From an uncultured Candidatus Binatia bacterium (GTDB lineage: Bacteria; Desulfobacterota; Binatia; HRBIN30), in the NCBI GenBank assembly GCA_964371655.1, contig CAYJOD010000003.1:82145-146144 (forward strand): DNA of 64,000 nucleotides, in the 5' to 3' direction. Numbering within the stretch: the first letter of the stretch is position 1; each line of letters begins with the position of its first letter. The notes beneath the pieces are model-generated. The model had not been told where the DNA came from. It did not search any database and was given only the letters and a program-made list of their open reading frames with translations. The translations under genes were made by a program, and so were the position numbers. Positions 1 through 32,155 of the stretch are shown one piece after another.

Positions 1-2
1 CG

Positions 3-875
3 ATCGCGATCTACATGGACGCGGGCTTGTATGCGGTGGGGCGGTGGGGAGTCGAGCGTGCGGCGGCGCGCGGCGTGCCCGTGCGGAGCTTTCGCCACCA
101 CGATCCGCAGGCGTTGGATGCCGTGCTCGCGTGTGGCCGGACCGGCACTCGCCGGCCGTTGATTGTCACCGACGGGTTCTGCCCGGCCTGCGGCACGCCC
201 GCTCCACTACGAGCTTACCTGGAATGTGCGCGTCGATACCGTGGACAGCTGGTAATCGACGACACCCAGGCGCTCGGCGTGCTCGGTCACATGCCGAGCG
301 CACACATGCCGTATGGGTTCGGCGGCGGCGGGTCGCTGCGTTGGCATCGAATACGCGGTGCTGACGTCATGGTCGTGAGCTCTCTGGCCAAGGGGTTCGG
401 GGTTCCGGTGGCGGTTCTCGCTGGGTCGCGGGAATGCGTCGATGGCTTTCAAGTGCGGAGCGACACGCTCGTCCACAGCAGCCCGCCATCGACAGCCGTG
501 TGCAGCGCCGCAACGAACGCTCTGACGATCAACCGCAGCAGTGGCGATGTGCTGCGAGCTCGGCTGGCAGGACGGGTCGCCAAGTTCCGGAAGTGTCTGG
601 CCGCGGTAGGTGTCCGACCGGCCGGGGCACAATTCCCTGTGCAGACCTTCCGCTTCGAGAGTCGCAGGGGGGCCGAGCAGTTTCACGATGCGTTGCTCAG
701 CCAGAACATCCGCAGTGTTCTCGTCGGGCCACGTGCCGAACACCGTGGCGGCGTCGCGTTGATCGTCACCGCGCGGCACACGGCCGATCAGATCGAATAC
801 GCCGCTCAGAAGATCGCCAGCGTGCTCTCCTGTGATGTGCGCGGGCTGGATGAACGGGAAAGGAGAGCTCAATGA
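3..875 (+). CDS. PLP-dependent alpha-oxoamine synthase family protein (BioF/Kbl-like, diverged), 5'-truncated by window edge
   Basis: Frame open from position 3; FRHHD, VTDG, IDDTQALG and SSLAKGFG (PLP lysine) motifs; stop overlaps next ATG (ATGA). Confidence 0.8.
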   Translation: MAIYMDAGLYAVGRWGVERAAARGVPVRSFRHHDPQALDAVLACGRTGTRRPLIVTDGFCPACGTPAPLRAYLECARRYRGQLVIDDTQALGVLGHMPSAHMPYGFGGGGSLRWHRIRGADVMVVSSLAKGFGVPVAVLAGSRECVDGFQVRSDTLVHSSPPSTAVCSAATNALTINRSSGDVLRARLAGRVAKFRKCLAAVGVRPAGAQFPVQTFRFESRRGAEQFHDALLSQNIRSVLVGPRAEHRGGVALIVTARHTADQIEYAAQKIASVLSCDVRGLDERERRAQ

Positions 876-1135
876 GAACCAATGCCGCACGTCGACTGAG
901 TCCGTGGCTTGATCCTGACACCGAGCTGGATTCGATCGTCCGAGAGCTCGGGAGCAGCTCTGGATCCGGGGCGGATCGCGTCAGATGGATCCAGCAGTCG
1001 CTCAACCGGATTCTGGGTTTGAAGCTCGCTGAAGACGGCATCATGGGCCCACAGACGCGCAGCGTGATTCGCAGCTTCCAATCGAAGTACGGGTTGCGTG
1101 TCGATGGGATCGTTGGGCCACAAACGGAGGCCGCG
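633..1135 (+). repeat. Imperfect ~500 bp direct repeat, copy 1 (BioF-like 3' end + RBS + leader/PG-binding start)
   Basis: Aligns by eye with ~2613-3110. Confidence 0.9.
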
Positions 1136-2185
1136 TTGCGGTCAGCGGTGAGCGGTGCACGCGGAGGCACCGCACCACCAACCCAAGGGGGCTCGCGAGG
1201 ATCTGCAGCAGATCGCGTTAAATGGGTCCAGCAGTCGCTCAATCGAGTGGCTGGTGAACGACTAGTGGAGGACGGAATCGCCGGGCCAGCCACGACGGCT
1301 GCTATCAAGCGGTTCCAGGCCCGACGAGGCCTGTCCCCGGATGGAGTCGCCGGCCCACGAACGCAAGCGGCACTCGTATCTGCCGGTGCTACACCCCCAC
1401 CGCTAACCACAGCACCTGACGCCACGCTCAAGAACTTCGACTTTGACCGGGCTGACATCCAGCCCTTTCATCGGCCACAAATGGAGCAGATCGCGGCGCG
1501 TATCGCAGAAAGCTGGCGTACAGGAGCGGCTGTCCACACGGTTGTCCTTGTAGGCCACACTGATCCTGTCGGTTCAGCAGACTACAACGTTCGTCTGGGC
1601 ATGCGGCGCGGTTTGGCAGTACGCGCTGCACTGGCCCGAGCGCTTGAGCTACAGCAACGCGGTCTCAGTTCTCGAGTTTTTATCCGCGTGACCAGCAAAG
1701 GCGAGCAAGACGCTGTTGATAATGATCCCGGTAGCAATCGGCGCGTTGAAGTGTTCTTGTCAACACGTAAGCTGCAACCGCGCAGACCGCCTCCCCCGCC
1801 GCCAGGACCGCAGCCGCCACCTCCGAAGCCGACCAACGGCGATCAACCCAAGCCGAAGCCTCGGGGCTGCGACTGGGAAACGAGCATCGATTGGGATGAA
1901 AAGTTCGAACGGAACTTCCAGAGTTGTTGCACCAGCCTCTACGCAGCCCGAAGCTTCTGCCCACTCGTCCCCGAATGGGCGAAATTGCTGCCGGAGTTCG
2001 AGATCTGTCGGCTGACGCCCGCGGAATTCGAAGCACGCGTCGACCAAGGCATTTTCCAGAACGTCCAATCAGAGGTCGTGCAGGAAACCGGTATCGTTGG
2101 GGGTGTCGGTAACTGCAGCCCGGCCGCTGTCACCGGCCGGCGGTTCACAGAGTGGAAGAGTCGTACTGGCAGGAAATGTTCTTGA
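872..2185 (+). CDS. Peptidoglycan-binding (2 repeats) + OmpA-like domain protein with Pro-rich linker and Cys-rich C-terminal domain
   Basis: Two WxQQSLN...DGxxGPxT repeats; OmpA motifs FDFDRADI, GHTD, NVRLGMRR, NRRVEV; RBS AAGGAG; no signal peptide visible. Confidence 0.85.
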   Translation: MRTNAARRLSPWLDPDTELDSIVRELGSSSGSGADRVRWIQQSLNRILGLKLAEDGIMGPQTRSVIRSFQSKYGLRVDGIVGPQTEAALRSAVSGARGGTAPPTQGGSRGSAADRVKWVQQSLNRVAGERLVEDGIAGPATTAAIKRFQARRGLSPDGVAGPRTQAALVSAGATPPPLTTAPDATLKNFDFDRADIQPFHRPQMEQIAARIAESWRTGAAVHTVVLVGHTDPVGSADYNVRLGMRRGLAVRAALARALELQQRGLSSRVFIRVTSKGEQDAVDNDPGSNRRVEVFLSTRKLQPRRPPPPPPGPQPPPPKPTNGDQPKPKPRGCDWETSIDWDEKFERNFQSCCTSLYAARSFCPLVPEWAKLLPEFEICRLTPAEFEARVDQGIFQNVQSEVVQETGIVGGVGNCSPAAVTGRRFTEWKSRTGRKCS

Positions 2186-2612
2186 GCGCGACGAACTTGT
2201 CCACACCGGCGAGCCGCAGCGCCGTGTCCGAGATCTCCGTGGGGATGCCCGTAACGTTGGGGCCGTCTGATACTGGGGCATGTCGAATCGGCAGTTAATA
2301 CGGGCGATATAGGCGGGTGTGCGTCAGCCCGCGCGATAGCGGTGTGACAGAGGCGCTGGAGCAACCGAGCAATTCACGGCAAGGGAGGTTCACAATGGCA
2401 TACAAGTATAAGCGCCTGGTCAGCCTCCCCCGACCGGGATTTGGCCGAAGCGTGCCGCGCAGCGTGCTAGGGGGGCGGGCTTGTGCGCCTTCCCCGGCTG
2501 GGCATCGGGCGTTCGGTTGCGCGGGAAGGATTCGCGGGTGAGTGGGAGTTGGGGGGATGTCGAGAGCCACTGCCGGCGCGATACACAGCGAGCAGGTTGC
2601 GCGTGTCACCGC

Positions 2613-2845
2613 TTTCCGGTGCGCACCTTCCTTTCGAGAGCAGTACACGTGCCCAGGAGTTTCACGACGCGCTCAGCCAGAACATTCGCAGCGTTCTGGT
2701 GGGGCCGCGGGCCGAACACCGCGGCGGCGTCGCGTTGATCGTCACCACGCAGCACACGGCCTAGCATATCCAATACGCCGCTCAGCAGATCGCCCTCGTG
2801 CATGATGCGCGCGCGTTAGACGAACCGGAAAGGAGAGCTCGATGA
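2613..2845 (+). pseudogene. Degenerate copy of the BioF-like gene 3' end
   Basis: Encodes EFHDALSQNIRSVLVGPRAEHRGGVALIVT like the first gene, but with indels and an in-frame TAG at 2762-2764. Confidence 0.85.
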
Positions 2846-3110
2846 GGACGAATACCGCACGTAGCGTGAGCCCGTGGCTCGATCCTGAGACCAAGCTTGA
2901 TTCGATCGTCCGAGAGATCGGGAGCAGTTCCGGAACCGGGGCGGATCGCGTTAGATGGATGCAGCAGTCGCTTAACCGGATTCTGGGCCTCAAGCTCGCT
3001 GAAGACGGTATCATGGGGACGCAGACGCGCAGCGCGATCCGGAGCTTCCAACAAACCCGAGGCTTGGCCGTCGACGGTGTTGCCGGGCCACGGACAGTGG
3101 CAGCGCTGAA
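2613..3110 (+). repeat. Imperfect ~500 bp direct repeat, copy 2
   Basis: Aligns with ~633-1135, e.g. shared gccgaacacc...ggcggcgtcgcgttgatcgtcacc and ggaaaggagagctc-N-atgag. Confidence 0.9.
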
Positions 3111-4548
3111 TGCGGCACTGACTGGGGCGACCCAGCCCGCCTCGACGGGCGACGTCAAGTGTCACGTGCTGGACGACTTCCTGTTCGATGCGGCAAGTAT
3201 GCCTGTGAAGCACATGCCAACAATCCGGCAGATCGCGAATCGTATTGTAGAGAGTCAGAGGACCGCTCAGCCGACCACCTCCATTCGCATTGAGGGCCAT
3301 ACGGATCCAAAGGGCACAGAGGCGTACAACCTCGATCTTGGTCGCCGCCGTGCGGAGGATGTCCGTGGCCACCTCGTGAGAGCGGTCGAGACCATCCGCC
3401 CCGGTCTCGCTGGCCGGCTCACTTTCATCGTCGAAAGCCGCGGTGAGAGCCACCCGATTGCCGTCGAGCCTCGGCGAAACCGCCGCGTCGAAGTGTCATT
3501 GCGAAGAGCGCGGAGGTCACTCGATCGAGACTCGGATGCACTCGTGCTTATTCCGAACCGTTTCGGCTACATATGGTCGGGGCGTTTCTTCCGTAGCTCG
3601 TCGAATTCGTTCAGCTCCAAGTCCGGCACGATCGCGGGTCCTGGCGTAATCCCGCCAGACAGTCGTCAGCGCGTTCGTGGGACGTTGGCAGTACCATTCC
3701 GGTTCATTTGCTCTCTCGTCACTGAATTCGGGGAAGACCCCGACATGCCGGGCGCGCCCATTCGAGCGTTCGGGACCGGGACATTGATAAGCCCAAGACA
3801 TGTTCTTACAGCGGGCCACAACGTCTTAAGGATGTTCCAGGGTCGCAAAGGGAGTTTCGCTCTACGGGGAGCCGAACGTGTAACCGTCTTGCCTGCCCGA
3901 AATGGAGGAAGCGCGAGGCACCCATACGGATCTGTGCCCCGCTTGGAAGCTACCGGGGACTGGCGAGTACCGCCGGAATGGCGCAAACAACCTGGGCTTG
4001 CGCGAGGCTTCGACTTCGCCTTGATCACGCTCAAGAGCGCGATCCCGAGCAACTGGGGGTTCTGGGGAACAGAGTCGACCATAGTGCAGGCCGTTGAACC
4101 ATCTGCGCTCATTGGCCTGCCCATAAACACGTCTGGCTACCCAGAAGAAAAGATCGAGAGCAAGCCAATCGGCAGCGATGCTTCGGAGGAAGATTGGGAA
4201 AGGACCTGCTCAACGCAATGGCGTTCCTCCGGCAAGGTAGAAGGGTGTGAGCAGGAGAAGGTAGAAGAGTGTGATCCACGGACGTTTGCAAATGACCTCG
4301 ATGGAACGAGTGGGCAATCGGGTAGCCCGATCTGGCTTGTATCAAAAGGCAACGGCATCAGAATCATGGCAGGCATCTTCACCAGAGCCATTCACGATAA
4401 AACAGAAACTGGAAAGCTCTATTACACCGGGGTGAACGGGGGCGTTCGGATTACATCCGACCTACTCGAAACCCTAAGCGGTTGGATGAAGGCGGACGAC
4501 GTTTCCAGCACAGTCGAGAAGGGAACCCTTCTGGTGAAAGCTCGATGA
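2842..4548 (+). CDS. Peptidoglycan-binding + OmpA-like + trypsin-like (V8-type) serine protease
   Basis: Same leader as 872..2185; GHTD/NLDLGRRRA/NRRVEV; catalytic triad motifs LTAGH, FDFALI, GQSGSP. Confidence 0.88.
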   Translation: MRTNTARSVSPWLDPETKLDSIVREIGSSSGTGADRVRWMQQSLNRILGLKLAEDGIMGTQTRSAIRSFQQTRGLAVDGVAGPRTVAALNAALTGATQPASTGDVKCHVLDDFLFDAASMPVKHMPTIRQIANRIVESQRTAQPTTSIRIEGHTDPKGTEAYNLDLGRRRAEDVRGHLVRAVETIRPGLAGRLTFIVESRGESHPIAVEPRRNRRVEVSLRRARRSLDRDSDALVLIPNRFGYIWSGRFFRSSSNSFSSKSGTIAGPGVIPPDSRQRVRGTLAVPFRFICSLVTEFGEDPDMPGAPIRAFGTGTLISPRHVLTAGHNVLRMFQGRKGSFALRGAERVTVLPARNGGSARHPYGSVPRLEATGDWRVPPEWRKQPGLARGFDFALITLKSAIPSNWGFWGTESTIVQAVEPSALIGLPINTSGYPEEKIESKPIGSDASEEDWERTCSTQWRSSGKVEGCEQEKVEECDPRTFANDLDGTSGQSGSPIWLVSKGNGIRIMAGIFTRAIHDKTETGKLYYTGVNGGVRITSDLLETLSGWMKADDVSSTVEKGTLLVKAR

Positions 4549-4723
4549 TCGGCGCGCCCCCCTCTGGCACGCAGGGCCGGGAGACGGGCTTATCACCCCG
4601 TGGGACGCCGCCCGACAGGGCCGGGATGTGATCCGGCCCTGCCGGGGCCAGTATGCGCCGCACCGTGTGCGGATGCTCGTGGGCGACAACCGTGCCACAG
4701 GCAATCACGCTAGGGAGGCCGGA

Positions 4724-6118
4724 ATGACCGCGAGCTGCTCAAACCATCTGGTCCTAGTAAAGCAGTTCGTTCGATTTCGCTCCGTCAGTGCGGATTCGAC
4801 GAACGGAGAGGCCCTCCGCGAATGTTCTGGTTGGTTGCGGGACCATTTGCACCGCATTGGCTTAGGCACTGCACGAGTTCTGTCGACTGCCGGTCATCCG
4901 GTCGTCTTCGGCGAATATCAGACCCTTCGCCGCCGGCCGACGGTCCTTGTCTACGGCCACTACGACGTGCAGCCGGCTGACCCGCTGCACGAGTGGCGCT
5001 CGCCGCCGTTCGAGCCGGTGATCCGCGGCGATTACCTGTACGGTCGTGGCGCGTGTGACGACAAGGGGCAGCTCTTCTGTCACGTGAAAGCGATCGAGTC
5101 GTACCTGAAAACCCACGGCGAGCTGCCTGTGAACGTTAAGCTCCTTATCGAGGGCGAAGAAGAAATTGGTAGCCCGAATCTCCACGCCTTCGTCGAGCGC
5201 CACCTCGACGAGCTGGCTGCCGATGTCGCGGTTATCTCAGACTCTCCCATGCGCGGTCCGAAGCAGCCGGCACTCACATATGCCTTGCGGGGGGCGTTGA
5301 GCCTGGATCTGGAGGTCCATGGGCTTGACCGTGATCTCCACTCCGGTCAGTTCGGTGGTGCTGTTCACAACCCCGCACAAGCGCTGGCCGAGATCCTCAG
5401 CCGGCTGCACGACAGAAACGGCCGTATCGCGATTCCGGGATTCTATGACCGCGTCCGTTCGGTAGCACCGGCGGAAAGGGCGTATCTCGCTCGGACCGGG
5501 CCGCGCGACGCGGAGATCTTGCACAATGCGGGAACAGCAGCGGGTTGGGGAGAAGCCGGGTACTCGCTGTATGAACGCACCACCATCCGTCCGGCGCTGA
5601 CCATCAACGGCATTACCGCTGGGTATCAAGGCCCCGGCGTCAAAGCGGTGATTCCACGGAGTGCGTCGGCCAAGCTGAACTTCCGGCTCGTACCGGATCA
5701 GGATCCACGCGAGATCGATCTCTTGTTCCGGAAATTTCTCGATAAAGTCACGCCGCTAACCGTGCGGATCGCTGTGCGTACGCAGATCGCGGCGAAACCA
5801 GTTCTGATTGATCACCGGCATTCTGCGATGCGCGCCGCGGCGCGCGCGTATGAGCGGACCTTCGGTGTCCCACCCGTCCTGATTCGCTCGGGCGGCACGA
5901 TCCCTGTCGTGAACATGTTCCAAGAGCTGCTGGGCATACCGACTGTCCTCATGGGATTCGGCCTTCCTGATGCCGGCATTCACGGGCCGAACGAGAGATT
6001 GCACCTGCCGACATTCTTCAAAGGAATTCAGACCTCAATCCATTTCCTTGCCGAAGCGGGGCGCTCGTTGAAGCCGCGGGCGATCTCTTGCGGTCAAGGC
6101 CGGGGGATCGCCGCATGA
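4724..6118 (+). CDS. M20 family metallopeptidase (dipeptidase, ArgE/DapE-like)
   Basis: YGHYDVQP, GRGACDDKGQ, EGEEE, HGPNE; RBS GGGAGG before ATG 4724. Confidence 0.9.
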   Translation: MTASCSNHLVLVKQFVRFRSVSADSTNGEALRECSGWLRDHLHRIGLGTARVLSTAGHPVVFGEYQTLRRRPTVLVYGHYDVQPADPLHEWRSPPFEPVIRGDYLYGRGACDDKGQLFCHVKAIESYLKTHGELPVNVKLLIEGEEEIGSPNLHAFVERHLDELAADVAVISDSPMRGPKQPALTYALRGALSLDLEVHGLDRDLHSGQFGGAVHNPAQALAEILSRLHDRNGRIAIPGFYDRVRSVAPAERAYLARTGPRDAEILHNAGTAAGWGEAGYSLYERTTIRPALTINGITAGYQGPGVKAVIPRSASAKLNFRLVPDQDPREIDLLFRKFLDKVTPLTVRIAVRTQIAAKPVLIDHRHSAMRAAARAYERTFGVPPVLIRSGGTIPVVNMFQELLGIPTVLMGFGLPDAGIHGPNERLHLPTFFKGIQTSIHFLAEAGRSLKPRAISCGQGRGIAA

Positions 6119-6993
6119 GCCGCCTGACACTCACGCCGGCGGCTCCGATGATCATCGACTGCCACTGTCACGCGGGAACGGGAGACGGTCTGACTGGTCC
6201 CTGGGACACGGCGGCCCGTCTCGATCGGTACATGCTGCGTGCGGCTCGGGCTGGCATTCAGCGCACCGTCATCTTCGCGGCGTTTCACTCTGACTACGCA
6301 AAAGCAAACCGCGAAGTAGCGCGGATTGTCAAGGCGCGTCCGCATCGCTTCTATGGCTTCGCCTTCGTCGATGCCGCTCGCGACCGCGGTCGCATTGCAA
6401 CTATGGTGCGTGAGGCCGTCGAGCAGCATGGCTTTGTCGGCATCAAGGTCCACCGCCACGATGCCCGCATCACGCGCGAAGTGTGCGACCTTGCCCGCGC
6501 CTACCGCCTGCCCGTTTTGTACGACGTCATGGGGGAGGTGGCGGTCGTTGAGCTGCTCGCCACCGAATATCGTGACGTCAACTTCATTATTCCTCACCTC
6601 GGCAGCTTCGGCGACGACTGGCGTGCGCAGCTGGCCCTCATCGATCATCTGGTGCGGCATCCGAACGTGTACACCGACACGTCGGGCGTGCGGCGCTTCG
6701 ACCTCCTGGCGGATGCGGTTGCCCGCGCCGGCGCTCACAAGGTGCTGTTCGGGACCGACGGTCCATGGTTGCACCCTGCAGTCGAGCTGGCGAAGATCCG
6801 AGCCTTGCAGCTCTCAGTCGACGACGAGCAACGCGTGGTCGCCGGCAACTTCCTCCGGCTCATTCGCGAGGTGCGCCGTGCCGGGTCATTCGCGGGAGGA
6901 GCGTCACGACGGAGCGGAGCGGATGTCAGCCGGCGCGATCCGTGCTTCGCGGATCCGTTTCCAACCTCCGAGTCGCTGCGACTTTCTCCGTAA
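6115..6993 (+). CDS. Amidohydrolase family protein (amidohydro_2 TIM barrel)
   Basis: IIDCHCH, GIKVH, IPHLG, FGTDGP; ATGA overlap with the M20 gene. Confidence 0.88.
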   Translation: MSRLTLTPAAPMIIDCHCHAGTGDGLTGPWDTAARLDRYMLRAARAGIQRTVIFAAFHSDYAKANREVARIVKARPHRFYGFAFVDAARDRGRIATMVREAVEQHGFVGIKVHRHDARITREVCDLARAYRLPVLYDVMGEVAVVELLATEYRDVNFIIPHLGSFGDDWRAQLALIDHLVRHPNVYTDTSGVRRFDLLADAVARAGAHKVLFGTDGPWLHPAVELAKIRALQLSVDDEQRVVAGNFLRLIREVRRAGSFAGGASRRSGADVSRRDPCFADPFPTSESLRLSP

Positions 6994-7181
6994 CCGTCGC
7001 CGTTATCCGCGCCGTGGATTCTTGCTCTTGGAGAAATCGGCACTCAAGGCGAGTTCCTCTACGACCGGCTCAAAGCTGGCGCTTCGCGCGCGATGCGCCA
7101 GCTTTGAGCTCCAACCCACGAGAACTGAATCATCCGCCCCACGTCCGCTTCGATCGCCTAGGGCGTGGCGGCAAAGGCACG

Positions 7182-7748
7182 CTATTGCGGCCCCGGCCCG
7201 CGTACGCACCAATAATTGATGAAATTCGTCTTGTTAAGACCGCTGGCCACCCCCCCATTAGCCAAGTTGGGAACACGCGTAGCGCTCCGATCCGGGGTCG
7301 CGTCATTCGAAGCCGCCTCGGTGCTGGTCCAATAGTACGTGTTCTGGACGTTGACGAAGGGGTGCCCCAGGGGCAGTGCGGGATTCGACCGCGTCATATC
7401 AATGAGGGAATAGAGTTCCGTCGTAGTTGGGAGGCGCCACCCACCCCGCCCTCCGATGGTAGCTTTGGAACAACAGTTGACCGCGAGGGCCCAGTTACCT
7501 GGATTACCACACCCGCCGACGGTAGCCGCACCCGCATCCAGCTGCCACACCAGTCCGGTCTCCTTGTCGAGCACCGCCTCAGAGTTGAAGTTCGTCAAGA
7601 CCTTGAACCGCGACGGCGTATCGAAAGTCGCACTCCACGGCTTCAGCGACGCAGCACCCGCTGAGCTGACCACTGTCAAGGAGCCTGCCAAGCCAAGCGC
7701 GGCACCGATTACCACTCTGGCCAATATTTCATGTCGTTTCGATTTCAT
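7182..7748 (-). CDS. Secreted DUF1566/Lcl C-terminal domain protein (C-type lectin-like fold)
   Basis: Signal peptide; VLDKETGLVWQ, GWRLPTxxEL, YYWTST; RBS AAGGAGGAG. Confidence 0.8.
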   Translation of the reverse strand: MKSKRHEILARVVIGAALGLAGSLTVVSSAGAASLKPWSATFDTPSRFKVLTNFNSEAVLDKETGLVWQLDAGAATVGGCGNPGNWALAVNCCSKATIGGRGGWRLPTTTELYSLIDMTRSNPALPLGHPFVNVQNTYYWTSTEAASNDATPDRSATRVPNLANGGVASGLNKTNFINYWCVRGPGPQ

Positions 7749-7967
7749 GTCTCCTCCTTCTGCTCACCAAGCAACCGGGTCGGGCCCGCGAGTCGCGTGA
7801 GACGTGAGAACTAGTCTGTTTCCAGGGGCGGCATACCGGCCGCTCTGTTTTTTTCTTGGCACTGGTCATACCATGGTATCAGCCCCTATCGAGCCGCGAG
7901 CGTGACGTAAGTCATGCTCGCCATTGACCACAGTCCCCGTCTCTGACGCGAACCTGTTTTGCCCCAG

Positions 7968-8040
7968 GTGACGCTCCTCGATCATCTGGCTCGGCATCCG
8001 AACGTGTACACCTATGCACCGGGGGTGTGTGGCGCGCACC
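7968..8040 (+). pseudogene. Remnant duplicate of an internal amidohydrolase segment
   Basis: 7978-8012 matches 6641-6675 at 33/35 nt (LDHLARHPNVYT vs IDHLVRHPNVYT). Confidence 0.75.
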
Positions 8041-8046
8041 TCAGTC

Positions 8047-9489
8047 TCAGACATCCGGGTCGCCACCATTTCCTCCGCAACCGTAGCCGTTACCCGCGCT
8101 ACCGCTCTTCTCTCGAGAATCAGCACGCCGCATTTGCAAAGCGCGGTCGGTGACGCCCAAGTGCTTGGCGGCGCGCTGCAGATTCCCTTGTTCTTCGGAT
8201 ATGGCGATGCGGATCGCCCAGTCGGAAGTCGTGCGGCTGATCTCTTTCAGGCCGACTCCTTGGTTGAGCGCACAACGAAGCGCGTGCTCGAACCCTCCAT
8301 CTCGCCAGTCGCTGCTTTCTCCTTCGACGAGCGGTCGTTCATCTGGGGGAACGTCGCCAACCGTTATCGGCCCACCACCCACATGGCGGTAGCGCATCCG
8401 AGCGACGAGCTGCCGTAGATCACGGACATTGCCAGGGTAGTTGCGCGCGAGGACGTAGCCGCGCACGGGATCATCGAGGTCTGGAAGTGCGTCCTGGGGC
8501 CGAAGTTGTGCGAGGAAATGGCGGATCAGAATCGGAATGTCTTCGCGGCGCTCGCGGAGTGGCGGCAGATGGCAGGTGACCGCTGCAATCCGATAGTAAA
8601 GATCGCGGCGGAACCGCCCCGACGCGACCTCATCGAGTAAGTTCCGGTTCGTCGCGCACAGCAGCCGGAAGTCGGTACGTTGCCAGGTGTTTCCTCCGAC
8701 GCGCTTATGGGTCCCTTCCTGAACGACGCGCAACAGCTGCGCTTGCATTGGCAGCGGTAGTTCCCCGACCTCGTCGAGGAAAAGGGTTCCGCCGTTGGCG
8801 AGCGCGAACGCTCCGTCGCGTGTCGATACGGCGCCCGTGAATGCACCGCGCTCGTGGCCGAAGAACTCACTTCCGGCGAGCTCCGGCACGATCGTGGTGC
8901 AATCAAGAACTACCAGATCACCTTTCGTCGGGCGGGGATCGAGGGTGTGCACGAGCCGAGCAATGAGTTCCTTGCCGGTGCCGCTCTCGCCCGAGATCAG
9001 GACCCTGGCATCGGTGAAGCGTGCGACCTCGATCACATGGCGCAGCGTTGCAATCCAAGCGGGACTGCGGCCGACCACATTGTCTCTGACCAGCGTCGAG
9101 TGCAGAAGCTCGTCGATAGCCGCCCAGCGTGTAAAGCGTTCGACGATCTCGTCCACGCGCCACGCCGACTCGCTGCACGCCAGAACATCCGCCGCTCCAG
9201 TCTGTAGCAGCTGCCATGCTTGCTGAGCCGTCACTCCAGATACTCCTATCGATACTGCAAGGACCCGGTGGAAGCCCGCCGCACTTGCGATGCGTAGCTG
9301 CGCGCACACCTCGTCGGAGGGATCCTCAAAGAAAACAATCCCCGGCCCTGGTGCGTCCTCCCAGCCGCCGTCGCGGACGCGGATGCCCGCGTCGCTCAAG
9401 GCCTGTCGAACCGCTGGCGCAGCCGACAGCGTATGCCCGTGAAAACTGCACCATACCTCGAGTGAGAGACCTGACCCTGCTCCAGACAT
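8047..9489 (-). CDS. Sigma-54-dependent transcriptional activator (bEBP) with degenerate receiver-like N-terminus
   Basis: GESGTGKE, GAFTGA, LFLDEVGE, FRRDLYYR, YPGNVRDL, C-terminal HTH (AAKHLG). Confidence 0.93.
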   Translation of the reverse strand: MSGAGSGLSLEVWCSFHGHTLSAAPAVRQALSDAGIRVRDGGWEDAPGPGIVFFEDPSDEVCAQLRIASAAGFHRVLAVSIGVSGVTAQQAWQLLQTGAADVLACSESAWRVDEIVERFTRWAAIDELLHSTLVRDNVVGRSPAWIATLRHVIEVARFTDARVLISGESGTGKELIARLVHTLDPRPTKGDLVVLDCTTIVPELAGSEFFGHERGAFTGAVSTRDGAFALANGGTLFLDEVGELPLPMQAQLLRVVQEGTHKRVGGNTWQRTDFRLLCATNRNLLDEVASGRFRRDLYYRIAAVTCHLPPLRERREDIPILIRHFLAQLRPQDALPDLDDPVRGYVLARNYPGNVRDLRQLVARMRYRHVGGGPITVGDVPPDERPLVEGESSDWRDGGFEHALRCALNQGVGLKEISRTTSDWAIRIAISEEQGNLQRAAKHLGVTDRALQMRRADSREKSGSAGNGYGCGGNGGDPDV

Positions 9490-9616: not shown

Positions 9617-10414
9617 CTAGCGCGCGCAACGAAAGCCAAAGGCACTGCCCGAGGTGAACGGCCCCCATTCGCCGCGGACCGCGAGCGGGCCGGTGCCCGG
9701 GCTGTTGAACATGCCGCCACGCGTTAGCGCGCCGGGCTCCCCTGTGGTCGCCGCCCCCGCCAGGCACTGAGGGTCCCCGCTCCCGCTCCAAGTGCCACAG
9801 GTCGTCGACCGCGGCACCCAGTCCGCCACCCACTCGTATACGTTCCCCACCATGTCGAAGGCACCCCAGCTCGATTTGCAGCTGCTGCGCGAGCCGGTGT
9901 CCACTACGGCGATGACGCTCTGTGTATTGCAGTCCGTCGACCCGTTGTCCGGTCCCGGGTCCGGCGTGCCCGACACCGCTCCCTGCCACTCGGCGTTGCT
10001 CGGCAGTCGTTTGAGTGCATTGAAACACGCCTGCTGCGCCTGGAACCACGTCACGCATGAGGTGGGGTGGACGCCGGGGATGGACACGGCATACAGCGGT
10101 TCCGTCCACTGTCCGTTGGCCGGAAACGTCGCCGGAAATGCCGGCGCGCAAGTGTTGACGGAGGGGACGCTAATCTGCGTCGCCCCGCCGGCCTGCAGAT
10201 CGGCCAGCGTCGCCTTGCCGTTTTGAATCTTCTTGACCAGTGCCTTGTTAGCTATCGTCGGGTCCGGCACTTGCCACACGCTCGCCTCGTACTTGTCCAT
10301 ACACACCGAGCCGGCCTTCACGGCGTCGGCCGCGCACTTCGGCAAGCCGGCATGAGCTGGTGCGGCTAGTGCCACGGCCACCAATCCTGTTGCGAATCCC
10401 AATCTGTTCATCAT
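9617..10414 (-). CDS. Secreted FGE-sulfatase/SUMF1-like domain protein (C-type lectin-like fold)
   Basis: Signal peptide; CMDKYEASV, KRLPSNAEW, DMVGNVYEW, RGG, GFRCAR. Confidence 0.85.
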   Translation of the reverse strand: MMNRLGFATGLVAVALAAPAHAGLPKCAADAVKAGSVCMDKYEASVWQVPDPTIANKALVKKIQNGKATLADLQAGGATQISVPSVNTCAPAFPATFPANGQWTEPLYAVSIPGVHPTSCVTWFQAQQACFNALKRLPSNAEWQGAVSGTPDPGPDNGSTDCNTQSVIAVVDTGSRSSCKSSWGAFDMVGNVYEWVADWVPRSTTCGTWSGSGDPQCLAGAATTGEPGALTRGGMFNSPGTGPLAVRGEWGPFTSGSAFGFRCAR

Positions 10415-10876: not shown

Positions 10877-12133
10877 CTACTGCGGTCCGCGGAGCAGCAA
10901 GCCAACCGGGAAATTGTACACGCGCCGGCTGATGCGCTCGACGCGGGGGTGCATCGAGATCAGCAGGGCGCGCTGCGCCTGTTTCGGATAGAGATCGAGG
11001 AACGTCTCAAGCGCCCGCACGTCGCGGGCGTGGGTACTGGACGCGTGCTTGATCTCGATCGGTACGAGGCGACCTCCGGCATTGAGCACGAGATCGCACT
11101 CCATGCCTTGCGGTGTGCGCCAGAAGTACGCGTCGCAGGCCTTGCCCGCGTGGCCGTATGTCTTGCGGATCTCGGCTAACACAAACGCCTCGAACAGCCG
11201 TCCAAAGTGTGGTGCGTTCAGCAGGCCTGGAATGGTGTCGATCGCCTGCAAGTGGAGCCCCAGGCCGCTGTCGGCAAAAATCCACTTTGGGCGCTTGACC
11301 AGACGTTTGGTCGCGTTTTCCGTGTACGGCAGCAGGCGAAATGCCTGGTAGCCGGTTTCGAGTAGAGACAGCCAGCGCTCGACGGTGCTGTCGTCGATGC
11401 CGAGCACATTGCCGATCTCGGATTTGTTGATCACGGTGCCGCTGCGACCGGCGACCAACACCAGAAAGCGATCGAACTTGCCGAGGTCGGCCACCTGACT
11501 CAATTCGCGTACGTCACGTTGCAGATAGGTACGCCGATAGGATTCGAACCAATCGGCGTCCGGTCCTTCAAGCAGCGGCACCGGAAAACCGCCGGCGCGC
11601 ATCGCGGGAGCGATGTGCTGCGGGTCATTCACCGGAAAGGCCTGGCCAAGGAGATCGGCGAGTGCGTCGGGCTGCTGGAGCAACTTGATCGTCTCCTCGG
11701 GCTTGGCGCCGCGCGCCTCCTGCACCGTGAAAGGCCACAGGTCGAGCACGGCCACCCGACCGGCCAGGGATTCCGTCACTCCTCGCATGAGAGGGAAATG
11801 TTGGCTGCCCGTGAGAAAGAAACGGAGTCTGCGGCCGCCACGATCGATCTCGTGCTTGAGGTAGGGAAAGATGTCGGGAACCTGCTGGATTTCGTCGAGG
11901 AGCAGGGGGCCCGGGTGGTTGGCGAAGAACAACTCGGGATCGCGGCGAAACGCGGCGATCTGGCTCGGAGTATCGAAAGAAACGACGGCGGCCGCATCGC
12001 CGTGAAGCTGGCGATGGAGCCGGGTCAGAAGTGAGGTCTTTCCCGCCTGCCGCGGACCCGTTACCAACACGGCCGCAAAGCGTCGGGCGAGTGCGGTAAT
12101 CTTCGCTTCGAGGGCTCTTTGGCGATAGGCCAT
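10877..12133 (-). CDS. AAA+ ATP-binding protein (AAA_14 + DUF4143 type)
   Basis: GPRQAGKT, LDEIQ, LTGS, ESLAGR, FEAFV, ECDLV...IEIK. Confidence 0.9.
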   Translation of the reverse strand: MAYRQRALEAKITALARRFAAVLVTGPRQAGKTSLLTRLHRQLHGDAAAVVSFDTPSQIAAFRRDPELFFANHPGPLLLDEIQQVPDIFPYLKHEIDRGGRRLRFFLTGSQHFPLMRGVTESLAGRVAVLDLWPFTVQEARGAKPEETIKLLQQPDALADLLGQAFPVNDPQHIAPAMRAGGFPVPLLEGPDADWFESYRRTYLQRDVRELSQVADLGKFDRFLVLVAGRSGTVINKSEIGNVLGIDDSTVERWLSLLETGYQAFRLLPYTENATKRLVKRPKWIFADSGLGLHLQAIDTIPGLLNAPHFGRLFEAFVLAEIRKTYGHAGKACDAYFWRTPQGMECDLVLNAGGRLVPIEIKHASSTHARDVRALETFLDLYPKQAQRALLISMHPRVERISRRVYNFPVGLLLRGPQ

Positions 12134-19794: not shown

Positions 19795-21030
19795 ATGATG
19801 AAGAGCACACGTCTTGCGTTCTTGGTTGGGCTTGCGTCGATGCAGCTACTGCGGCCGTTTCCGTTGCATGCGGTGACCTTTGGCGGCGACGTCGTCGAAC
19901 CGCCGAGCGGCAGGACGCTCATGGAGCGATTGAGCGATCGCCCCAAGAAGACGTTCATGCCGATCGAGTGGAGCAACAAGGACTGGTCGATCTCGCCCTG
20001 GGGTTACGTCCGACTCGAATACGAGAGCGTGCAGAACGACGACCGTGTCACCAATCCGCCGATTGGACGCAACGATGGTTTCATTCTCGACAACGCCCGG
20101 CTGGGGCTTGATCTGACCTATCGCGATCAGCTGAGCTTTCTGATGTCGTTGGAAGGCGCCAGCGACATCCAGAACAGCTTCAATTCGCCGAGTGGCCAAA
20201 TCGACGTCCGCCTGCGCGATGCCTACGTCCGTTGGGACCCGATTCGATACATCGGCATCCAGGGCGGACAGTTCAAAGCTCCGTTCGACGCCGAAGATCT
20301 GCGCCCGACTCCCGATCTGTTGTTCGCGTCGACCGCGGTTGGTTGGCAGGGCGTGTTGGCGGGCCGCGGGTATCAGGAAGCCGGGATTTCGCTGGATCGA
20401 CAGCTCGGCGTGATGCTCTCGCCGAACGCCCCGATTCGCTACGGCGACTTCGGCGGCATGTACTACTTCATGATCGGCAACGGCAACGGCACCAACCAAT
20501 TGCTCAACGACAACAGCCGTCTCACCATCATCGGGCGCGTCGAGGCCATGTATTCCAAGCTCGTCACTCTCGGCGCCGCCGGCTTCACCAATGATCGCAC
20601 CATCGCCGACCCTCCGAACCAAGCGCGTGAAGATGACACCGGCGTCGCCGCCGACTTGATGATCAATCCCGATCCGTTCGAGGTCTTCTTCCAGTTTGGA
20701 CAAGTGGAGACCGACTTCCCGACCACCGGTGTGTCGAGCCGAATCCGGCGCACCTGGCATGCCCAAGCCGGCTACCGCATCGACACTCCGTGGTCCTTCA
20801 GCGTCACCCCGGCCTATCGCTACGCGTTCTACGATCCGTGGGCCAACGCCGGCTCCAACTCCGGCGCCAGCGAAAACGCCCTGGCGCTGTACTACCACAC
20901 CTTTGGCATGCGCCTCGCCCATACCGGGCTGCCGCTGACGTTGTTCATCAACTACACGCTGGCCGAGGAACAAAATCCACGGCAGCTCACCAACGACCAG
21001 TTCCAGATCTTGGCCCAGGTAGTCTTCTAG
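19795..21030 (+). CDS. Outer-membrane beta-barrel porin (OprO/OprP-like)
   Basis: Signal peptide; F.L.NARLG, LRDAYV, GQFKAPF; C-terminal Phe. Confidence 0.7.
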   Translation: MMKSTRLAFLVGLASMQLLRPFPLHAVTFGGDVVEPPSGRTLMERLSDRPKKTFMPIEWSNKDWSISPWGYVRLEYESVQNDDRVTNPPIGRNDGFILDNARLGLDLTYRDQLSFLMSLEGASDIQNSFNSPSGQIDVRLRDAYVRWDPIRYIGIQGGQFKAPFDAEDLRPTPDLLFASTAVGWQGVLAGRGYQEAGISLDRQLGVMLSPNAPIRYGDFGGMYYFMIGNGNGTNQLLNDNSRLTIIGRVEAMYSKLVTLGAAGFTNDRTIADPPNQAREDDTGVAADLMINPDPFEVFFQFGQVETDFPTTGVSSRIRRTWHAQAGYRIDTPWSFSVTPAYRYAFYDPWANAGSNSGASENALALYYHTFGMRLAHTGLPLTLFINYTLAEEQNPRQLTNDQFQILAQVVF

Positions 21031-24000
21031 ATGTTGTCGCCCGCCCACCGTATTACGTCGCTCCCCCTCTCCCTCTGTTTCGTCGTCGCCGTCGCTGGCT
21101 GCGGTGGCTCCGGTGCCCCGGACGGCGGACGCGCCACCGCCCAGCGTGCCGTCAATCGAAGTCAGCTGGTGGGCGGCGAACGTGCGCTCGGCGAAGTCGG
21201 CGACATCGTCATGGAGAACGAGAAGATCCGGCTCGTGATTCAGAAGGAGGGATATTCGCGTGGCTTCGGCGTCTACGGGGGCAGCCTGATCGACGCCGAC
21301 TTGCGCCGTACCGACGAGCAAGGGAACAGCTTTGCCGGCATCGGCAACGACCAATTCGCTGAGCTCTTCCCTGCCTTCTTCGTGCAGGCCATCAAGGTCG
21401 ACAGCGTGGAGATCCTCGACGACGGCAGAAACGGCGGGCCGGCGCGCGTCGAGGCCTCGGGGAGCGCCGGCGACTTTCTCGAGCTCGCCGGCGTGCTCAA
21501 TCGTGCCGTCACCGGCTCCAATCAACAGTTCCGCAATCCCAACAGCCCGCCGCGTATTCGGTATTCGACGATCTACGAGCTCGAGCCCAACAAGCAGTAC
21601 GTCACCATGCGCTTCAGCGTGAAGAACATCTCGACGGCGGCGTTGACCTTTCCCGGCCGCGATGCGCGTACGCTGTTCGGCGTGCTCGGCCTGCCGCTCG
21701 AAGGGTTCACCGTGCCCTCAGGCGATATCGCTCTGTTCGGAGCCACCAGCAAAGTCTTCATCCCGGGTGTCGGTTTCGACCTGCGCTTCGGACTCGATCG
21801 CGCCTACGCGCGCGGCATCGACTTCCCGGCGTTCCCCGGCTTTGTCACCGAATACATCGCCAGCCGTGGCGACGGCGCCAGCTACGGCATCGTCGTCGAC
21901 GAGACTGAGAATAACTACGCCTACAACAAGCGCGATATCTACGGCGACGAGCACACTCCGATCACCCGGTCGTCGCTCTTGATTCCCTTCGTCGCCAGCT
22001 CGTTCGTCGGCATCTTCCACCAGGAGGCGCCAGCCACCCTGCCGCCCGGCGCATCCTTTGAGATCGCCAAACACTTCATTGTCGGATCAGGCGACGTCGG
22101 ATCCGTCCTCGATGTCGTGAACGAGATCCGCGGCAACGACGTCGGCCGCTTGGGCGGCCAACTCATCGACGCCGCCACCAGTGAAGCTCTCAAGGGTCTC
22201 AGCGTCGTCATCTATCAGCGCTTCGCCGACGGCTTCCATCGCCCCTATGCGCAGTACGACACGCGTGAGGACGGCCTGTTCGGCGGCACCTTGGTGCCGG
22301 GCAGCTACAGCCTGAAGGTCGTCGGTGACGGCAGGCCGGTCACCGACTTCATCGACTTCGAGATCAGCGCGGGACAAAGGACATCGCTGCGCGTCCACTC
22401 GACACCACCGGGCCGCATCTTCGTTCGCATTCTCGATGATCACGGCAATGCACTGCCGGCCAAGGCGTCGGCGATCGGACATTTTGCCGCGGAGCTCTCC
22501 GGTCGACTGACCCCGGAATTCTTGTTCGATCTTGAGGCCGGCCAAGCTTTCCTCAGCAGCGACTTGGTCACCGACGATCCGAACAATCCCGACACTCGAC
22601 AGTATATTGAAGCCTACGGCTTCAGCTCCAACGGCATCGTCGAGCTGGCGGTGCGGCCGGGCGAGTACGACATCGTCAGCAGCCGCGGCCCCGAGTACGA
22701 TACGGCGACGTCGCACGTGTCGGTTGGTCCGGCTCAAGCCGTGAGCGTCGATCAGCGCCTGCGTCGCGTTGTCGACACCACGGGCTGGATGGCGCTCGAT
22801 TCGCACGTGCACAGCCGTGCCAGCATCGATTCCGACATGAGTCTGGACGAGCGCGTGCGCGCGCTGGCTGCCGAAGGCGTCGAGCTCGCGGTGGCGACGG
22901 ATCATAACTTCGTCACCGATTACAGCCCGTATGTCGCGCGCAACGACCTCAATCGCTGGATCCATTCGACCGTCGGTATCGAGATGACCACGCTCGAGTC
23001 CGGCCATTTCAACGGCTACCCACTGCGCTATCAGGCTGGTCCGATCACGCACGGATCGTTCGAATGGGCGCGGCGTACACCGGATGAGATTTTCGGCGAC
23101 TTGCGCGGGCTCGGCCTCTACGGACCCGCCGATACCATCGTCCAGGCGAACCATCCGCGCGATCAAATCCTCGGGTACTACACGCAATACAATCGCGATC
23201 CGCTCACCGCCCGGGAGATGCCTTCCAACTTCCTCGATCAGTTCGTCACGCCGACCGGCCCGGCCTTCAAGAATGCCGACGGCAGCACGACCTTCTCGAT
23301 GAACTACGAGGCGGTCGAGCTGTTGAACGGCAAGCTTTACTACGAGACTCGCCACTACCGGGTGCCGGAAGAGCTACCACCCGGAAACCTGCCGTCTCCG
23401 ATCCCACCGACCGGCACCATTCTGCGCGGCGCCGACGGCAGCGTCGGTTTTCCCGGCGTCGTCGATGATTGGTTCAACCTGCTTAACTTGGGTTACCGCT
23501 ACATCGGCGTCGGCACCGGCGATTCGCATACCGGCTTCGACGAAGCCGGACAATTCCGCACGATGGTCTATCTCGGCGTCGACGCCCCGGACGAGGTGAA
23601 CGACAAGATGATCGTCAACGGCCTGCGCAGCCGCCGTGTCGTTTCCACCAACGGCCCGCTCATCGATTTTTCGATTGATGATCCGGTGCTCGGCGAGATG
23701 GGGCAGACGATCGAAACCAACGCCGACACAGTTGCGTTGACCTACCGGGTCACGGCGGCGCCGTGGATCAGCATTCAGCGCATCCATATATACCGCAACG
23801 GCGTGATCGCGATGACACGCGAGATCGATCCCAATCGCGACCTGGCTGCACAGCCGTTTGAGGAAACGGTCGAGCTGGAGCTCGCGCACGACGGCGATGG
23901 CAACCCGATCGACAGCTGGTTTGTCGTCGATGCGACCGGCTATCGCAGCATGCACCCCGTCGTCCGCACCTTCGAAATCCCGCCCTTGCTGTTGACCGAC

Positions 24001-31979: not shown

Positions 31980-32155
31980 AGTGCGCGACTTATCACTTTG
32001 GCCTTTCCCGGGGAACGCGAGTCGGAGAGAAAAGGCACCCGTAAATTTTGCGTAACGCATTGTGTCCTGGCTGCTGGTACGCTGCGCGACGACGGGACCT
32101 GGGTTTCTCGAGAGTCCCGCATCCGATCGTGAGTACCGACTGGAGGAGCGAATCT

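Follow-up and report, generated by a model that had tools for sequence, protein, structure and literature searches.

Phage holin-endolysin(-spanin) cassettes and 'type 10' secretion deploy muralytic enzymes that carry no signal peptide and are released through permeabilisation of the membrane. Gasdermin-protease pairs are bacterial pore formers activated by proteolysis, bacteriolysins of the pro-lysostaphin type carry acidic N-terminal propeptides, and fusions of endolysins to polycations have been engineered. Operons transcribed with sigma-54 often have envelope functions. The current study concerns a 64,000-nt stretch of DNA (the window; G000:C3:82145-146144) from an uncultured Candidatus Binatia bacterium, the left end of which carries two neighbouring genes, pgA and pgB, for peptidoglycan-binding proteins that likewise lack a visible signal. 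Comparison with related loci places both genes in the variable slot of a recurrent predicted operon, which is apparently undescribed and widespread. The release of signal-less wall hydrolases outside phage biology is an open question, and the occurrence of such enzymes beside a four-gene core in hundreds of genomes makes it a testable one.

A near-invariant core in seven phyla

The operon starts ~3.9 kb upstream of window base 1. Within the 16 kb that precede the window (locus L001), three further co-oriented open reading frames (ORFs), encoding proteins here called gz, HExxH and U502, are followed by the complete gene for a BioF-like pyridoxal phosphate (PLP) enzyme, the 3' part of which opens the window (Table 1). 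The initial annotation had pointed to the upstream sequence as a place for further core genes and a -24/-12 promoter, and both are found there. None of the three upstream proteins has a model in Pfam, NCBIfam or PADLOC.

Related loci were collected with U502 as the seed. A scan of one genome per species gave 393 encoding stretches, the best 80 of which were kept as the set of related loci: 32 from Acidobacteriota, 29 from Pseudomonadota, seven from Thermodesulfobacteriota, six from Chloroflexota, four from Myxococcota and one each from Nitrospirota and Planctomycetota, seven phyla in all. Fifty of these are flank-complete, with at least 3.5 kb upstream and at least 8 kb downstream of U502; as the seed of the search, U502 gives no independent count among them. 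The gene order is gz (one to three copies), HExxH, U502, the BioF-like gene where present, the slot, an M20 peptidase gene where present, the amidohydrolase gene and, reversed, the gene for an NtrC-type sigma-54 activator or bacterial enhancer-binding protein (bEBP). Two loci deviate, the HExxH gene being reversed in L011 and downstream in L081. When all ORFs with 120 aa or more from the 80 loci were clustered all-vs-all, no further conserved family was found within ±10 kb of U502, and the remaining clusters were overlapping-frame shadows.

As judged from these comparisons, the near-invariant core consists of the predicted -24/-12 promoter, one to three gz genes, HExxH, U502 and the convergent bEBP, while the BioF-like gene, the amidohydrolase gene and sometimes the M20 gene have the distribution of accessories that border the slot. 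The initial annotation had assumed a conserved core of PLP enzyme, M20 peptidase, amidohydrolase and bEBP with exchangeable cargo. Its general scheme stands, in that a conserved set co-occurs across the seven phyla with variable PG-binding, OmpA and hydrolase genes; the composition that it gave to the core does not, as only the bEBP (49/50 flank-complete loci) behaves as a core member, M20 (12/50), the BioF-like enzyme (35/50) and the amidohydrolase (41/50) being accessories. That the bEBP gene converges on the operon had been seen correctly.

Table 1. Features of the operon and its remnants, with the number of related loci that carry each gene. Positions are those of the window unless given on contig C3.
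Feature	Position	Strand	Basis and remarks	Loci (of 80)	Flank-complete loci (of 50)
gz, 257 aa	C3:78321-79094	co-oriented with operon	no Pfam or NCBIfam family	72	49
HExxH protein, 413 aa	C3:79135-80376	co-oriented with operon	no Pfam or NCBIfam family	78	49
U502, 502 aa	C3:80398-81906	co-oriented with operon	no Pfam or NCBIfam family	80	
BioF/Kbl-like PLP enzyme, 3' 290 codons	3..875	+	Aminotran_1_2, 6e-13; full gene G000:C3:81913-83019, 368 aa	54	35
pgA, slot gene 1, 437 aa	872..2185	+	Pfam: two PG_binding_1, OmpA-like; Pro-rich linker; Cys-rich C-terminal domain of no known family	41 (pgA-like)	
Remnant of BioF-like 3' end, 69 codons	2633..2841	+	in-frame TAG; repeats D1, D2, D6; translation		
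pgB, slot gene 2, 568 aa	2842..4548	+	Pfam: PG_binding_1, OmpA-like, weak Trypsin_2	47 (pgB-like)	
Remnant of amidohydrolase 5' end	4550..4630	+	right after pgB stop; HxH metal motif lost; repeat D5; translations compared		
M20 dipeptidase	4721..6118	+	Peptidase_M20, M20_dimer; ORF open from 4628	15	12
Amidohydro_2 metal hydrolase, downstream slot border	6115..6993	+	Pfam, 1.1e-17; start 6115 or 6148	53	41
Lcl_C (DUF1566-like) protein	7182..7748	-	Pfam, 1.1e-19; signal-peptide-like N-terminus		
Internal amidohydrolase remnant, 26 codons	7965..8042	+	abuts bEBP stop; repeat D4, 76% nt identity; translations		
Sigma-54 activator (bEBP)	8047..9489	-	Sigma54_activat PF00158, 2.6e-56; AAA_lid_14; GAFTGA; C-terminal helix-turn-helix (HTH)	62	49

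Sigma-54 control

The gz ATG is preceded, at a distance of 72 nt, by a candidate promoter, TGGCAG-N5-TTGC, which differs at one position from TGGCAC-N5-TTGC; a GGGAGG Shine-Dalgarno sequence lies in between. The TGGCAC-N5-TTGC pattern, with GG and GC fixed, was sought in the 67 loci that have enough upstream sequence: 47 show a site that departs from it at no more than one position shortly before the first gz gene, at a density of 1.41/kb compared to 0.029/kb in the rest of the same strand (48-fold), and 62 of the 67 match when two mismatches are allowed. On the + strand of window positions 1-9489 there is no such site. An rpoN gene is present in the genome (contig C91; Sigma54_DBD, 212.9 bits). 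Judged by these predicted sites, sigma-54 control is a family-wide property of the operon.

The N-terminal domain of the bEBP was modelled with a predicted local distance difference test score (pLDDT) of 88.7, and its top Foldseek matches are response-regulator receiver domains (E 2e-4, target-normalised TM scores of 0.6-0.7). In 29 bEBP sequences no Asp is invariant or nearly so at the expected acceptor positions, which were set by eye and not by structural superposition. Because a conserved acceptor Asp is lacking, the domain is regarded as a probable pseudo-receiver.

The proteins encoded upstream

Proteins of the gz family are 200-260 aa in length and largely acidic and disordered. The N-terminus, M-H-D-[IL]-D-R-[TN], is near-fixed and was found in at least 59 of 103 gz ORFs, and in the gz of the present genome the acidic, aromatic-rich residues 1-100 have a net charge of -30. 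After the acidic part comes a conserved helix, EEMELA.ELL.V..E.ELDQFLG (46-row alignment), then a basic amphipathic stretch with a GxxxG run (glycine zipper) and a second conserved helix. The C-terminal motif SGRW.RRG.KIVL.G gave 43 regular-expression matches, all on the operon strand. Compared as a profile with solved structures, gz returned only weak matches to designed helical or repeat proteins and chance matches. More than 1500 relatives exist, for which the sources give no other names than 'hypothetical' or 'DUF697 family'. Some of them are doubled, at 400-470 aa, and some belong to Nocardiopsis (Actinomycetota), so that the gz family reaches into monoderm bacteria (P0198, P0207, P0121-P0214).

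In the HExxH protein, residues H181, E182, H185, E224 and D228 are invariant in 40 sequences, an HExxH...E pattern that we take to be gluzincin-like; its profile gave no matches among solved structures. U502 is all-helical in an AlphaFold2 model of low confidence (25 rows, pLDDT 58.4), for which a wide VIA-align fold search found no Z above 4.0. Its profile has no match in the PDB, and the best ESM Atlas score, 0.87, counts only as a lead on the scale of that tool. Many His, Glu and Arg residues of U502 are invariant. Among 8000 candidates scored, 4771 are relatives at E<=1e-3; the family forms 1309 representative clusters at 50% identity, is ~48% identical across phyla, and bears the name 'hypothetical' or 'uncharacterized protein' in every one of the 120 matches listed. 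Many homologues have N-terminal extensions of 100-260 aa, and two of 20 tested match CarboxypepD_reg. The operon brings together three large, strongly conserved families with no relative in Pfam, NCBIfam, PADLOC or the PDB.

The accessory enzymes are more familiar. In the BioF-like clade, the Schiff-base Lys (K208) and the PLP-binding D164/D165 are invariant, and Y88 and Q167, which replace both of the AONS/KBL His residues, are invariant in 27 sequences. The protein reaches 81.8 bits with NCBIfam bioF, the cut-off of which is 426, and matches the alpha-hydroxyketone autoinducer synthase family (5.6e-14), also far under the cut-off; its sequence marks it as a member of the superfamily, not a BioF/Kbl equivalog. 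The M20 protein passes the NCBIfam PRK08201 dipeptidase model (509.9 bits, cut-off 441). Its stop codon (6116-6118) overlaps a possible ATG of the amidohydrolase gene at 6115, in line with the coupled pair described initially, and the family alignment favours the start at 6148. The amidohydrolase is 60-83% identical to copies in other phyla and has only distant relatives in the PDB, among them gamma-resorcylate decarboxylase (1.8e-5).

The variable slot

Both borders of the slot are visible in 63 loci, where it is from -9 to 7407 nt in length and holds between none and about eight ORFs without hydrophobic signals. ORFs were predicted with a simple greedy caller that takes the most upstream start codon, so that some may be false in GC-rich DNA. 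In 58 loci there are 127 slot ORFs of at least 70 aa; a locus has up to six genes of at least 100 aa, and many have a single slot gene and no partner ORF. Among the flank-complete loci, 42 of 50 have a slot ORF of at least 200 aa.

Of the 112 slot ORFs with 100 aa or more, 61 gave a Pfam match at E<=1e-4 and 51 gave none. PG_binding_1 (41) is the most frequent domain, followed by OmpA (12), Trypsin/Trypsin_2 (7), VanY (6), Amidase_2 (5), Peptidase_M23, DUF2272 and Rv2525c-like (3 each), and Peptidase_M74 and CHAP (2 each); Glyco_hydro_25, LCAT, GDSL lipase, Extensin-like_C and HEAT_2 occur once each (two lipases altogether). By predicted domain content, most slot proteins combine PG_binding_1 modules with a peptidoglycan hydrolase, trypsin-like protease, lipase or OmpA-like domain. 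Signal-less muralytic enzymes (Amidase_2, GH25, VanY, M23, CHAP) are found in many related loci. The domains of pgA and pgB are limited to binding, OmpA-like, trypsin-like and unknown ones. Trypsin-like parts resembling that of pgB were detected by tblastn in at least eight related loci. The PG_binding_1 modules match PHROG endolysin families (best 3.8e-30).

Hydrophobicity was assessed for the 89 slot ORFs of at least 200 aa on the + strand (minus-strand and shorter ORFs being excluded), using Kyte-Doolittle means over 15 and 19 residues (KD15, KD19). No Sec-like hydrophobic segment was found in any of the 89, whether as a KD15 of at least 2.0 within residues 1-150 or a KD19 of at least 1.8 anywhere. 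By a narrower test (KD15 of at least 2.0 in residues 1-45 only), 94 of 540 long ORFs of the source genome were positive. Many slot ORFs of other loci open instead with a segment of alternating acidic and aromatic residues, which scores a median of 16.6 bits with a Gibbs-derived position weight matrix (PWM), the 95th percentile of the background being 4.3. Arg/Pro-rich stretches often follow this segment, and in 21 of the 89 slot ORFs, vs 12 of the 540 background ORFs, residues 41-160 consist to at least 30% of Arg, Lys and Pro. A hand-written pattern for a recurrent 'RDEN-LTN-RHPE' segment had no match in the slot ORFs.

Two slots of ~7 kb are those of a Nitrosomonas metagenome-assembled genome (MAG; L022:12663-19496) and a betaproteobacterial MAG (L010:12498-19460), with five and six ORFs of at least 100 aa, respectively. 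The former has an M74 gene, a GH25 gene, two trypsin-like genes and, by tblastn, an extra gz copy inside the slot; the latter has two M23 genes and one VanY gene. An N-terminus like that of gz was seen on two slot ORFs (L081:9982-10833 and L055:11460-13565; MHDVD..., MANID...), a hint that gz and slot proteins may have the extreme N-terminus in common in some loci. The motif GRW.R.G..IV, which belongs to the end of gz, stands near the N-terminus of the slot ORFs L010:17196 (VanY) and L076:14821 (Rv2525c-like).

The shared N-terminus of pgA and pgB

The initial annotation had described two co-oriented proteins with a common N-terminus, PG_binding_1 and OmpA-like domains and divergent C-termini, and this is borne out by Pfam and BLASTP. 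Identity is 68% between pgA residues 1-114 and pgB residues 1-111 and 49% between the PG_binding/OmpA parts, and the C-termini are unrelated to each other. The Cys-rich C-terminal 117 aa of pgA have no sequence match in the PDB; the trypsin-like part of pgB has weak ones, to a serine protease (E 0.034) and glutamyl endopeptidase (E 0.12). As previously noted, neither protein has a visible signal (maximum KD19 0.86 for pgA and 1.09 for pgB, hence no hydrophobic stretch), and pgA is coupled to the BioF-like gene, its start codon overlapping the stop of the latter as ATGA at 872-875.

Within the first 27 residues, 21 are the same in both proteins (counted from the translations), and this leader, MRTNxARxxSPWLDP..., had been proposed as a tag of exported or processed cargo. 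At the DNA level, however, window positions 654-1081 pair with 2633-3051 as a direct repeat of ~430 nt with 86-88% identity, which begins ~210 nt upstream of the pgB start codon and there comprises a remnant of the BioF-like 3' end (66.7% aa identity over 84 aa by tblastn). The leader is common to pgA and pgB because the DNA segment descends in common, as the similarity runs into non-coding DNA and a pseudogene remnant; on this evidence it arose as a side effect of a recent duplication or recombination event, in which the BioF 3' end was copied together with some 70 codons from the start of the slot gene. The 6.96 Mb source genome contains only the two copies in pgA and pgB. Searched against every stop-to-stop ORF in the 80 loci, a hidden Markov model of both leaders had no significant match (the best, at E 0.094, was not to a slot gene), and pgA residues 1-40, compared with 5.8 billion proteins, matched only pgA itself. 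The tag was accordingly rejected as a candidate, a local segmental duplication without copies elsewhere taking its place. Leader residues ~16-35 do align with the linker ahead of PG_binding_1 in slot proteins of other loci. In L081, the sequence 'LPWLDD' close to the N-terminus of one slot ORF loosely resembles the leader.

Since pgB is flanked by remnants of both slot-border genes, the BioF-like and the amidohydrolase gene, it is read as a cassette, which suggests that cassettes enter the slot by recombination within the border genes. The only other remnant case of this kind among the 80 loci is L052. The remnant at 7965-8042 would, from its sequence and position, mark the ancestral amidohydrolase/bEBP junction. 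As an example of cassette exchange, presumably through recombination within the conserved genes on either side, the system is a clear one.

Distribution

U502 was found in none of 40 relatives, down to order level, and in one of 300 other genomes sampled from the phylum. It is present on four megaplasmids or chromids (Rhizobium, Ensifer and Paraburkholderia). FastTree placed 81 U502 sequences on a tree that implies 19 changes of phylum label, compared with a minimum of 6 and a shuffled mean of 39. The tree is compatible with a horizontally mobile operon and fits repeated transfer without proving it. Carriers include Ensifer adhaerens, Cupriavidus and Myxococcota, and also ammonia oxidisers and cable bacteria; Paraburkholderia phymatum STM815, Acidobacteriaceae KBS 83 and Nitrosospira briensis are carriers available in culture. 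The DNA of the window was located in four sequencing runs of a single study, none of them listed as RNA.

Proposed function and alternatives

The reading that we tentatively prefer, at rather less than even confidence, is a sigma-54-gated, protease-licensed module for lysis or enzyme release, built on holin/endolysin logic. The activator would switch on sigma-54 transcription of the whole operon, and gz proteins would be made as acidic pro-forms, from which the acidic part would be removed or neutralised by the HExxH protease. The cationic glycine-zipper part could then permeabilise the cytoplasmic membrane, by which the signal-less wall-binding enzymes would reach the peptidoglycan as endolysins do, and the producer would lyse or leak, either in altruistic defence or to release a cocktail of bacteriolytic enzymes. 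The idea of a gz pro-form is put forward because an acidic N-terminal third is joined to cationic glycine-zipper parts beside a conserved metalloprotease; gz is presumably the only candidate for membrane action in the core. If altruistic lysis is the outcome, the operon would be a transcriptionally gated cell-death module of soil and sediment bacteria.

A number of observations weigh against this lysis module. Cleavage, membrane damage and lysis are presumed steps of the model. gz has no classical transmembrane helix (maximum KD19 1.39), matches no holin family in Pfam and has one weak match in PHROGs (E 0.0012), to a family without known function. The loci have no phage context; U502 occurs in none of 50,697 phage records and on no viral contigs, and gz, HExxH, U502, the BioF-like protein and the amidohydrolase have no family in PADLOC-DB 2.0, the last four having no match in PHROGs either. 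The model gives no role to the PLP enzyme, the amidohydrolase or U502; the last may be an enzyme, and some of its homologues are extended at the N-terminus by beta-sandwich domains of a type usual in surface proteins. In pgA and pgB themselves Pfam recognises no muralytic catalytic domain, and both lack the acidic/aromatic motif, their PWM scores of -3.3 and 0.17 bits lying within the background. The N-terminal similarity between gz and slot proteins is not higher within than between loci (p=0.09). Finally, the slot gene is absent from 5 of the 63 loci with a definable slot, and the core must therefore work without cargo.

A broader interpretation, possible but on the unlikely side, is that the gz/HExxH/U502 triad and the activator form an unrecognised, widespread machine that moves folded, signal-less wall enzymes out of the cytoplasm. 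It would amount to a new route of lysis or secretion that is used, with exchangeable cassettes of enzymes, in seven phyla or more.

Secretion of an antibacterial or predatory enzyme cocktail by living cells must also be weighed, and we consider it unlikely, though with an appreciable chance. Here the slot proteins, perhaps together with gz and U502, would be exported by an unrecognised non-Sec route, with the core as machinery, the acidic/aromatic N-termini as export or chaperone signals and the Arg/Pro stretches as aids in crossing the target outer membrane. The slot repertoire of amidases, muramidases, endopeptidases, lipases and proteases with PG-binding modules is that of antibacterial effectors aimed at the periplasm. 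Cassette turnover and as many as six slot genes in a locus agree with such a role, as do the N-terminal motif common to slot ORFs, their excess of Arg/Lys/Pro-rich segments and the CarboxypepD_reg-like extensions on some U502 homologues. Of the carriers Ensifer adhaerens, Cupriavidus and Myxococcota, some are presumably predatory; ammonia oxidisers and cable bacteria, however, also carry the operon. No transporter or known secretion gene is conserved within ±10 kb, where the bEBP is the sole conserved ATPase, many loci have a lone slot gene, and none of the 89 slot ORFs has the hydrophobic N-terminus that would make it a candidate periplasmic immunity gene.

It is improbable that the operon serves non-lethal envelope remodelling, a sigma-54 stress or dormancy programme in which the wall is trimmed and re-tethered by PG hydrolases and OmpA-like tethers that would enter the periplasm through transient gz-mediated leakage. 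That pgA and pgB are wall binders or tethers and a protease, not obvious lysins, would suit this, and so would the envelope functions frequent among sigma-54 operons, to which we alluded at the outset. Combinations of glycine zipper and OmpA are, moreover, known in envelope lipoproteins, YiaD_Gzip_OmpA being the best NCBIfam match of pgB. A patchy distribution (0/40 relatives, 1/300 in the phylum) is nevertheless ill-suited to a housekeeping or stress role, cassette turnover fits poorly with it, and envelope proteins normally carry Sec signals, which the 89 slot ORFs do not.

We give still less credence to a small-molecule pathway, in which U502, as a possible metalloenzyme, would act with the BioF-like enzyme, the amidohydrolase and M20 to synthesise or break down a metabolite (a signal or an antibiotic), with the wall binders as co-regulated passengers. 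Residues are strictly conserved in U502, the BioF-like clade and the amidohydrolase, and the BioF-like protein has the match to an autoinducer synthase mentioned above, but the enzymes are dispensable (Table 1) where gz, HExxH and U502 are near-invariant, and such a pathway explains neither gz nor the slot. Largely refuted is the view that the N-terminal ~27 aa are a dedicated export or processing tag for polymorphic cargo of a PLP/M20/amidohydrolase/bEBP core, for which the sharing by two neighbouring genes, the L081 sequence and the linker alignment might speak, since the similarity reaches past the coding sequence into non-coding DNA and a pseudogene remnant, further copies are missing from the genome, the 80 loci and the protein database, and M20 lies outside the core.

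Other features of the window

The Lcl_C gene between the amidohydrolase and bEBP genes has no counterpart in the 80 related loci and is a non-conserved insertion. With it, an FGE-sulfatase-like protein with a signal-peptide-like N-terminus (9617-10414, - strand) flanks the activator. FGE-like and PlsB-like neighbours are likewise found in none of the 80 loci; FGE-like proteins are reportedly a family of type VI secretion system (T6SS) immunity proteins, according to the title of a preprint. An AAA_14/DUF4143 ATPase gene adjoins the locus (10877-12133, - strand). Further along are two adjacent large ORFs (19795-21030 and 21031-24387, + strand; 411 and 1118 aa) without a Pfam match at E<=1e-5, and a 936-aa ORF (32048-34858, + strand) whose sole Pfam match is the hydrazine synthase alpha middle domain (3.5e-7). 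Other genes that neighbour the locus in the window are metabolic, and scans of the window for tRNAs and Rfam families gave no matches.

Comparison with known systems

The initial annotation knew of no characterised pathway with this gene set, and none was found in Pfam, NCBIfam, PADLOC or the literature searched; the literature search was a full-text search, with subscription journals and supplements beyond its scope. The closest parallel is the holin-endolysin cassette, with which the operon shares, in many related loci, signal-less wall enzymes beside a small, putatively membrane-active protein (gz), PG_binding_1 modules that match PHROG endolysin families and a release that would require the membrane to be permeabilised. 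Apart from the missing phage context, it differs in that gz has neither a transmembrane helix nor a holin family, in the dedicated sigma-54 activator and three extra conserved proteins without known function, and in slots that may hold several genes, including those for proteases, lipases and OmpA-like binders.

In the polymorphic-toxin survey of Zhang et al. (2012; PMC3482391), OmpA-like domains are put forward as toxin domains; the portions of that article covered here contain no mention of sigma-54 or NtrC, and OmpA and PGB1 domains appear in them only in other systems. In common with polymorphic toxins and the peptidoglycan-hydrolase effectors of T6SS and type IV secretion systems (T4SS), the slot proteins have a constant N-terminal PG_binding_1 and variable C-terminal enzymatic domains, a repertoire of amidases, muramidases, peptidases and lipases, and a cassette turnover that leaves gene remnants. 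Unlike in those systems, no known secretion apparatus (T5/T6/T7/T4/PVC) is conserved within ±10 kb in the 80 loci, and the variable units are whole genes between conserved enzymes and not the C-terminal tips of a giant protein. Nor is there an adjacent immunity candidate with a signal or membrane segment (0/89 slot ORFs), a test that leaves cytoplasmic immunity proteins aside. Because the defining features tested fail in both cases, the operon is filed under neither holin-endolysin nor effector-immunity systems.

Gasdermin-protease pairs resemble the operon in their patchy, mobile occurrence and in the placing of a protease gene beside a putative membrane-active protein with an inhibitory extension. 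No relation in sequence or fold was found, however, and in gz the extension is N-terminal and acidic and its cleavage is only proposed. The dedicated bEBP next to its target operon recalls PspF-psp and RtcR-rtcBA. The AAA+/HTH part matches RtcR_PspF2 of PADLOC (3.7e-87) and RtcR of NCBIfam (1e-81), this AAA+ part and the OmpA-like domains being all that PADLOC's generic models matched. In contrast to RtcR, the N-terminal domain has a receiver fold, not CARF, the protein scores under every NCBIfam cut-off, and the content of the operon is unrelated.

Pro-lysostaphin and the polycation-endolysin fusions are Sec-exported or engineered, whereas the slot proteins are signal-less, and pgA and pgB have neither of the two segments concerned. 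The likeness is that in many loci wall hydrolases have an acidic N-terminal extension followed by a polycationic stretch. The slot is in this respect a natural library of lytic enzymes of Gram-negative origin with unusual acidic and polycationic extensions, which may be of interest for enzybiotics.

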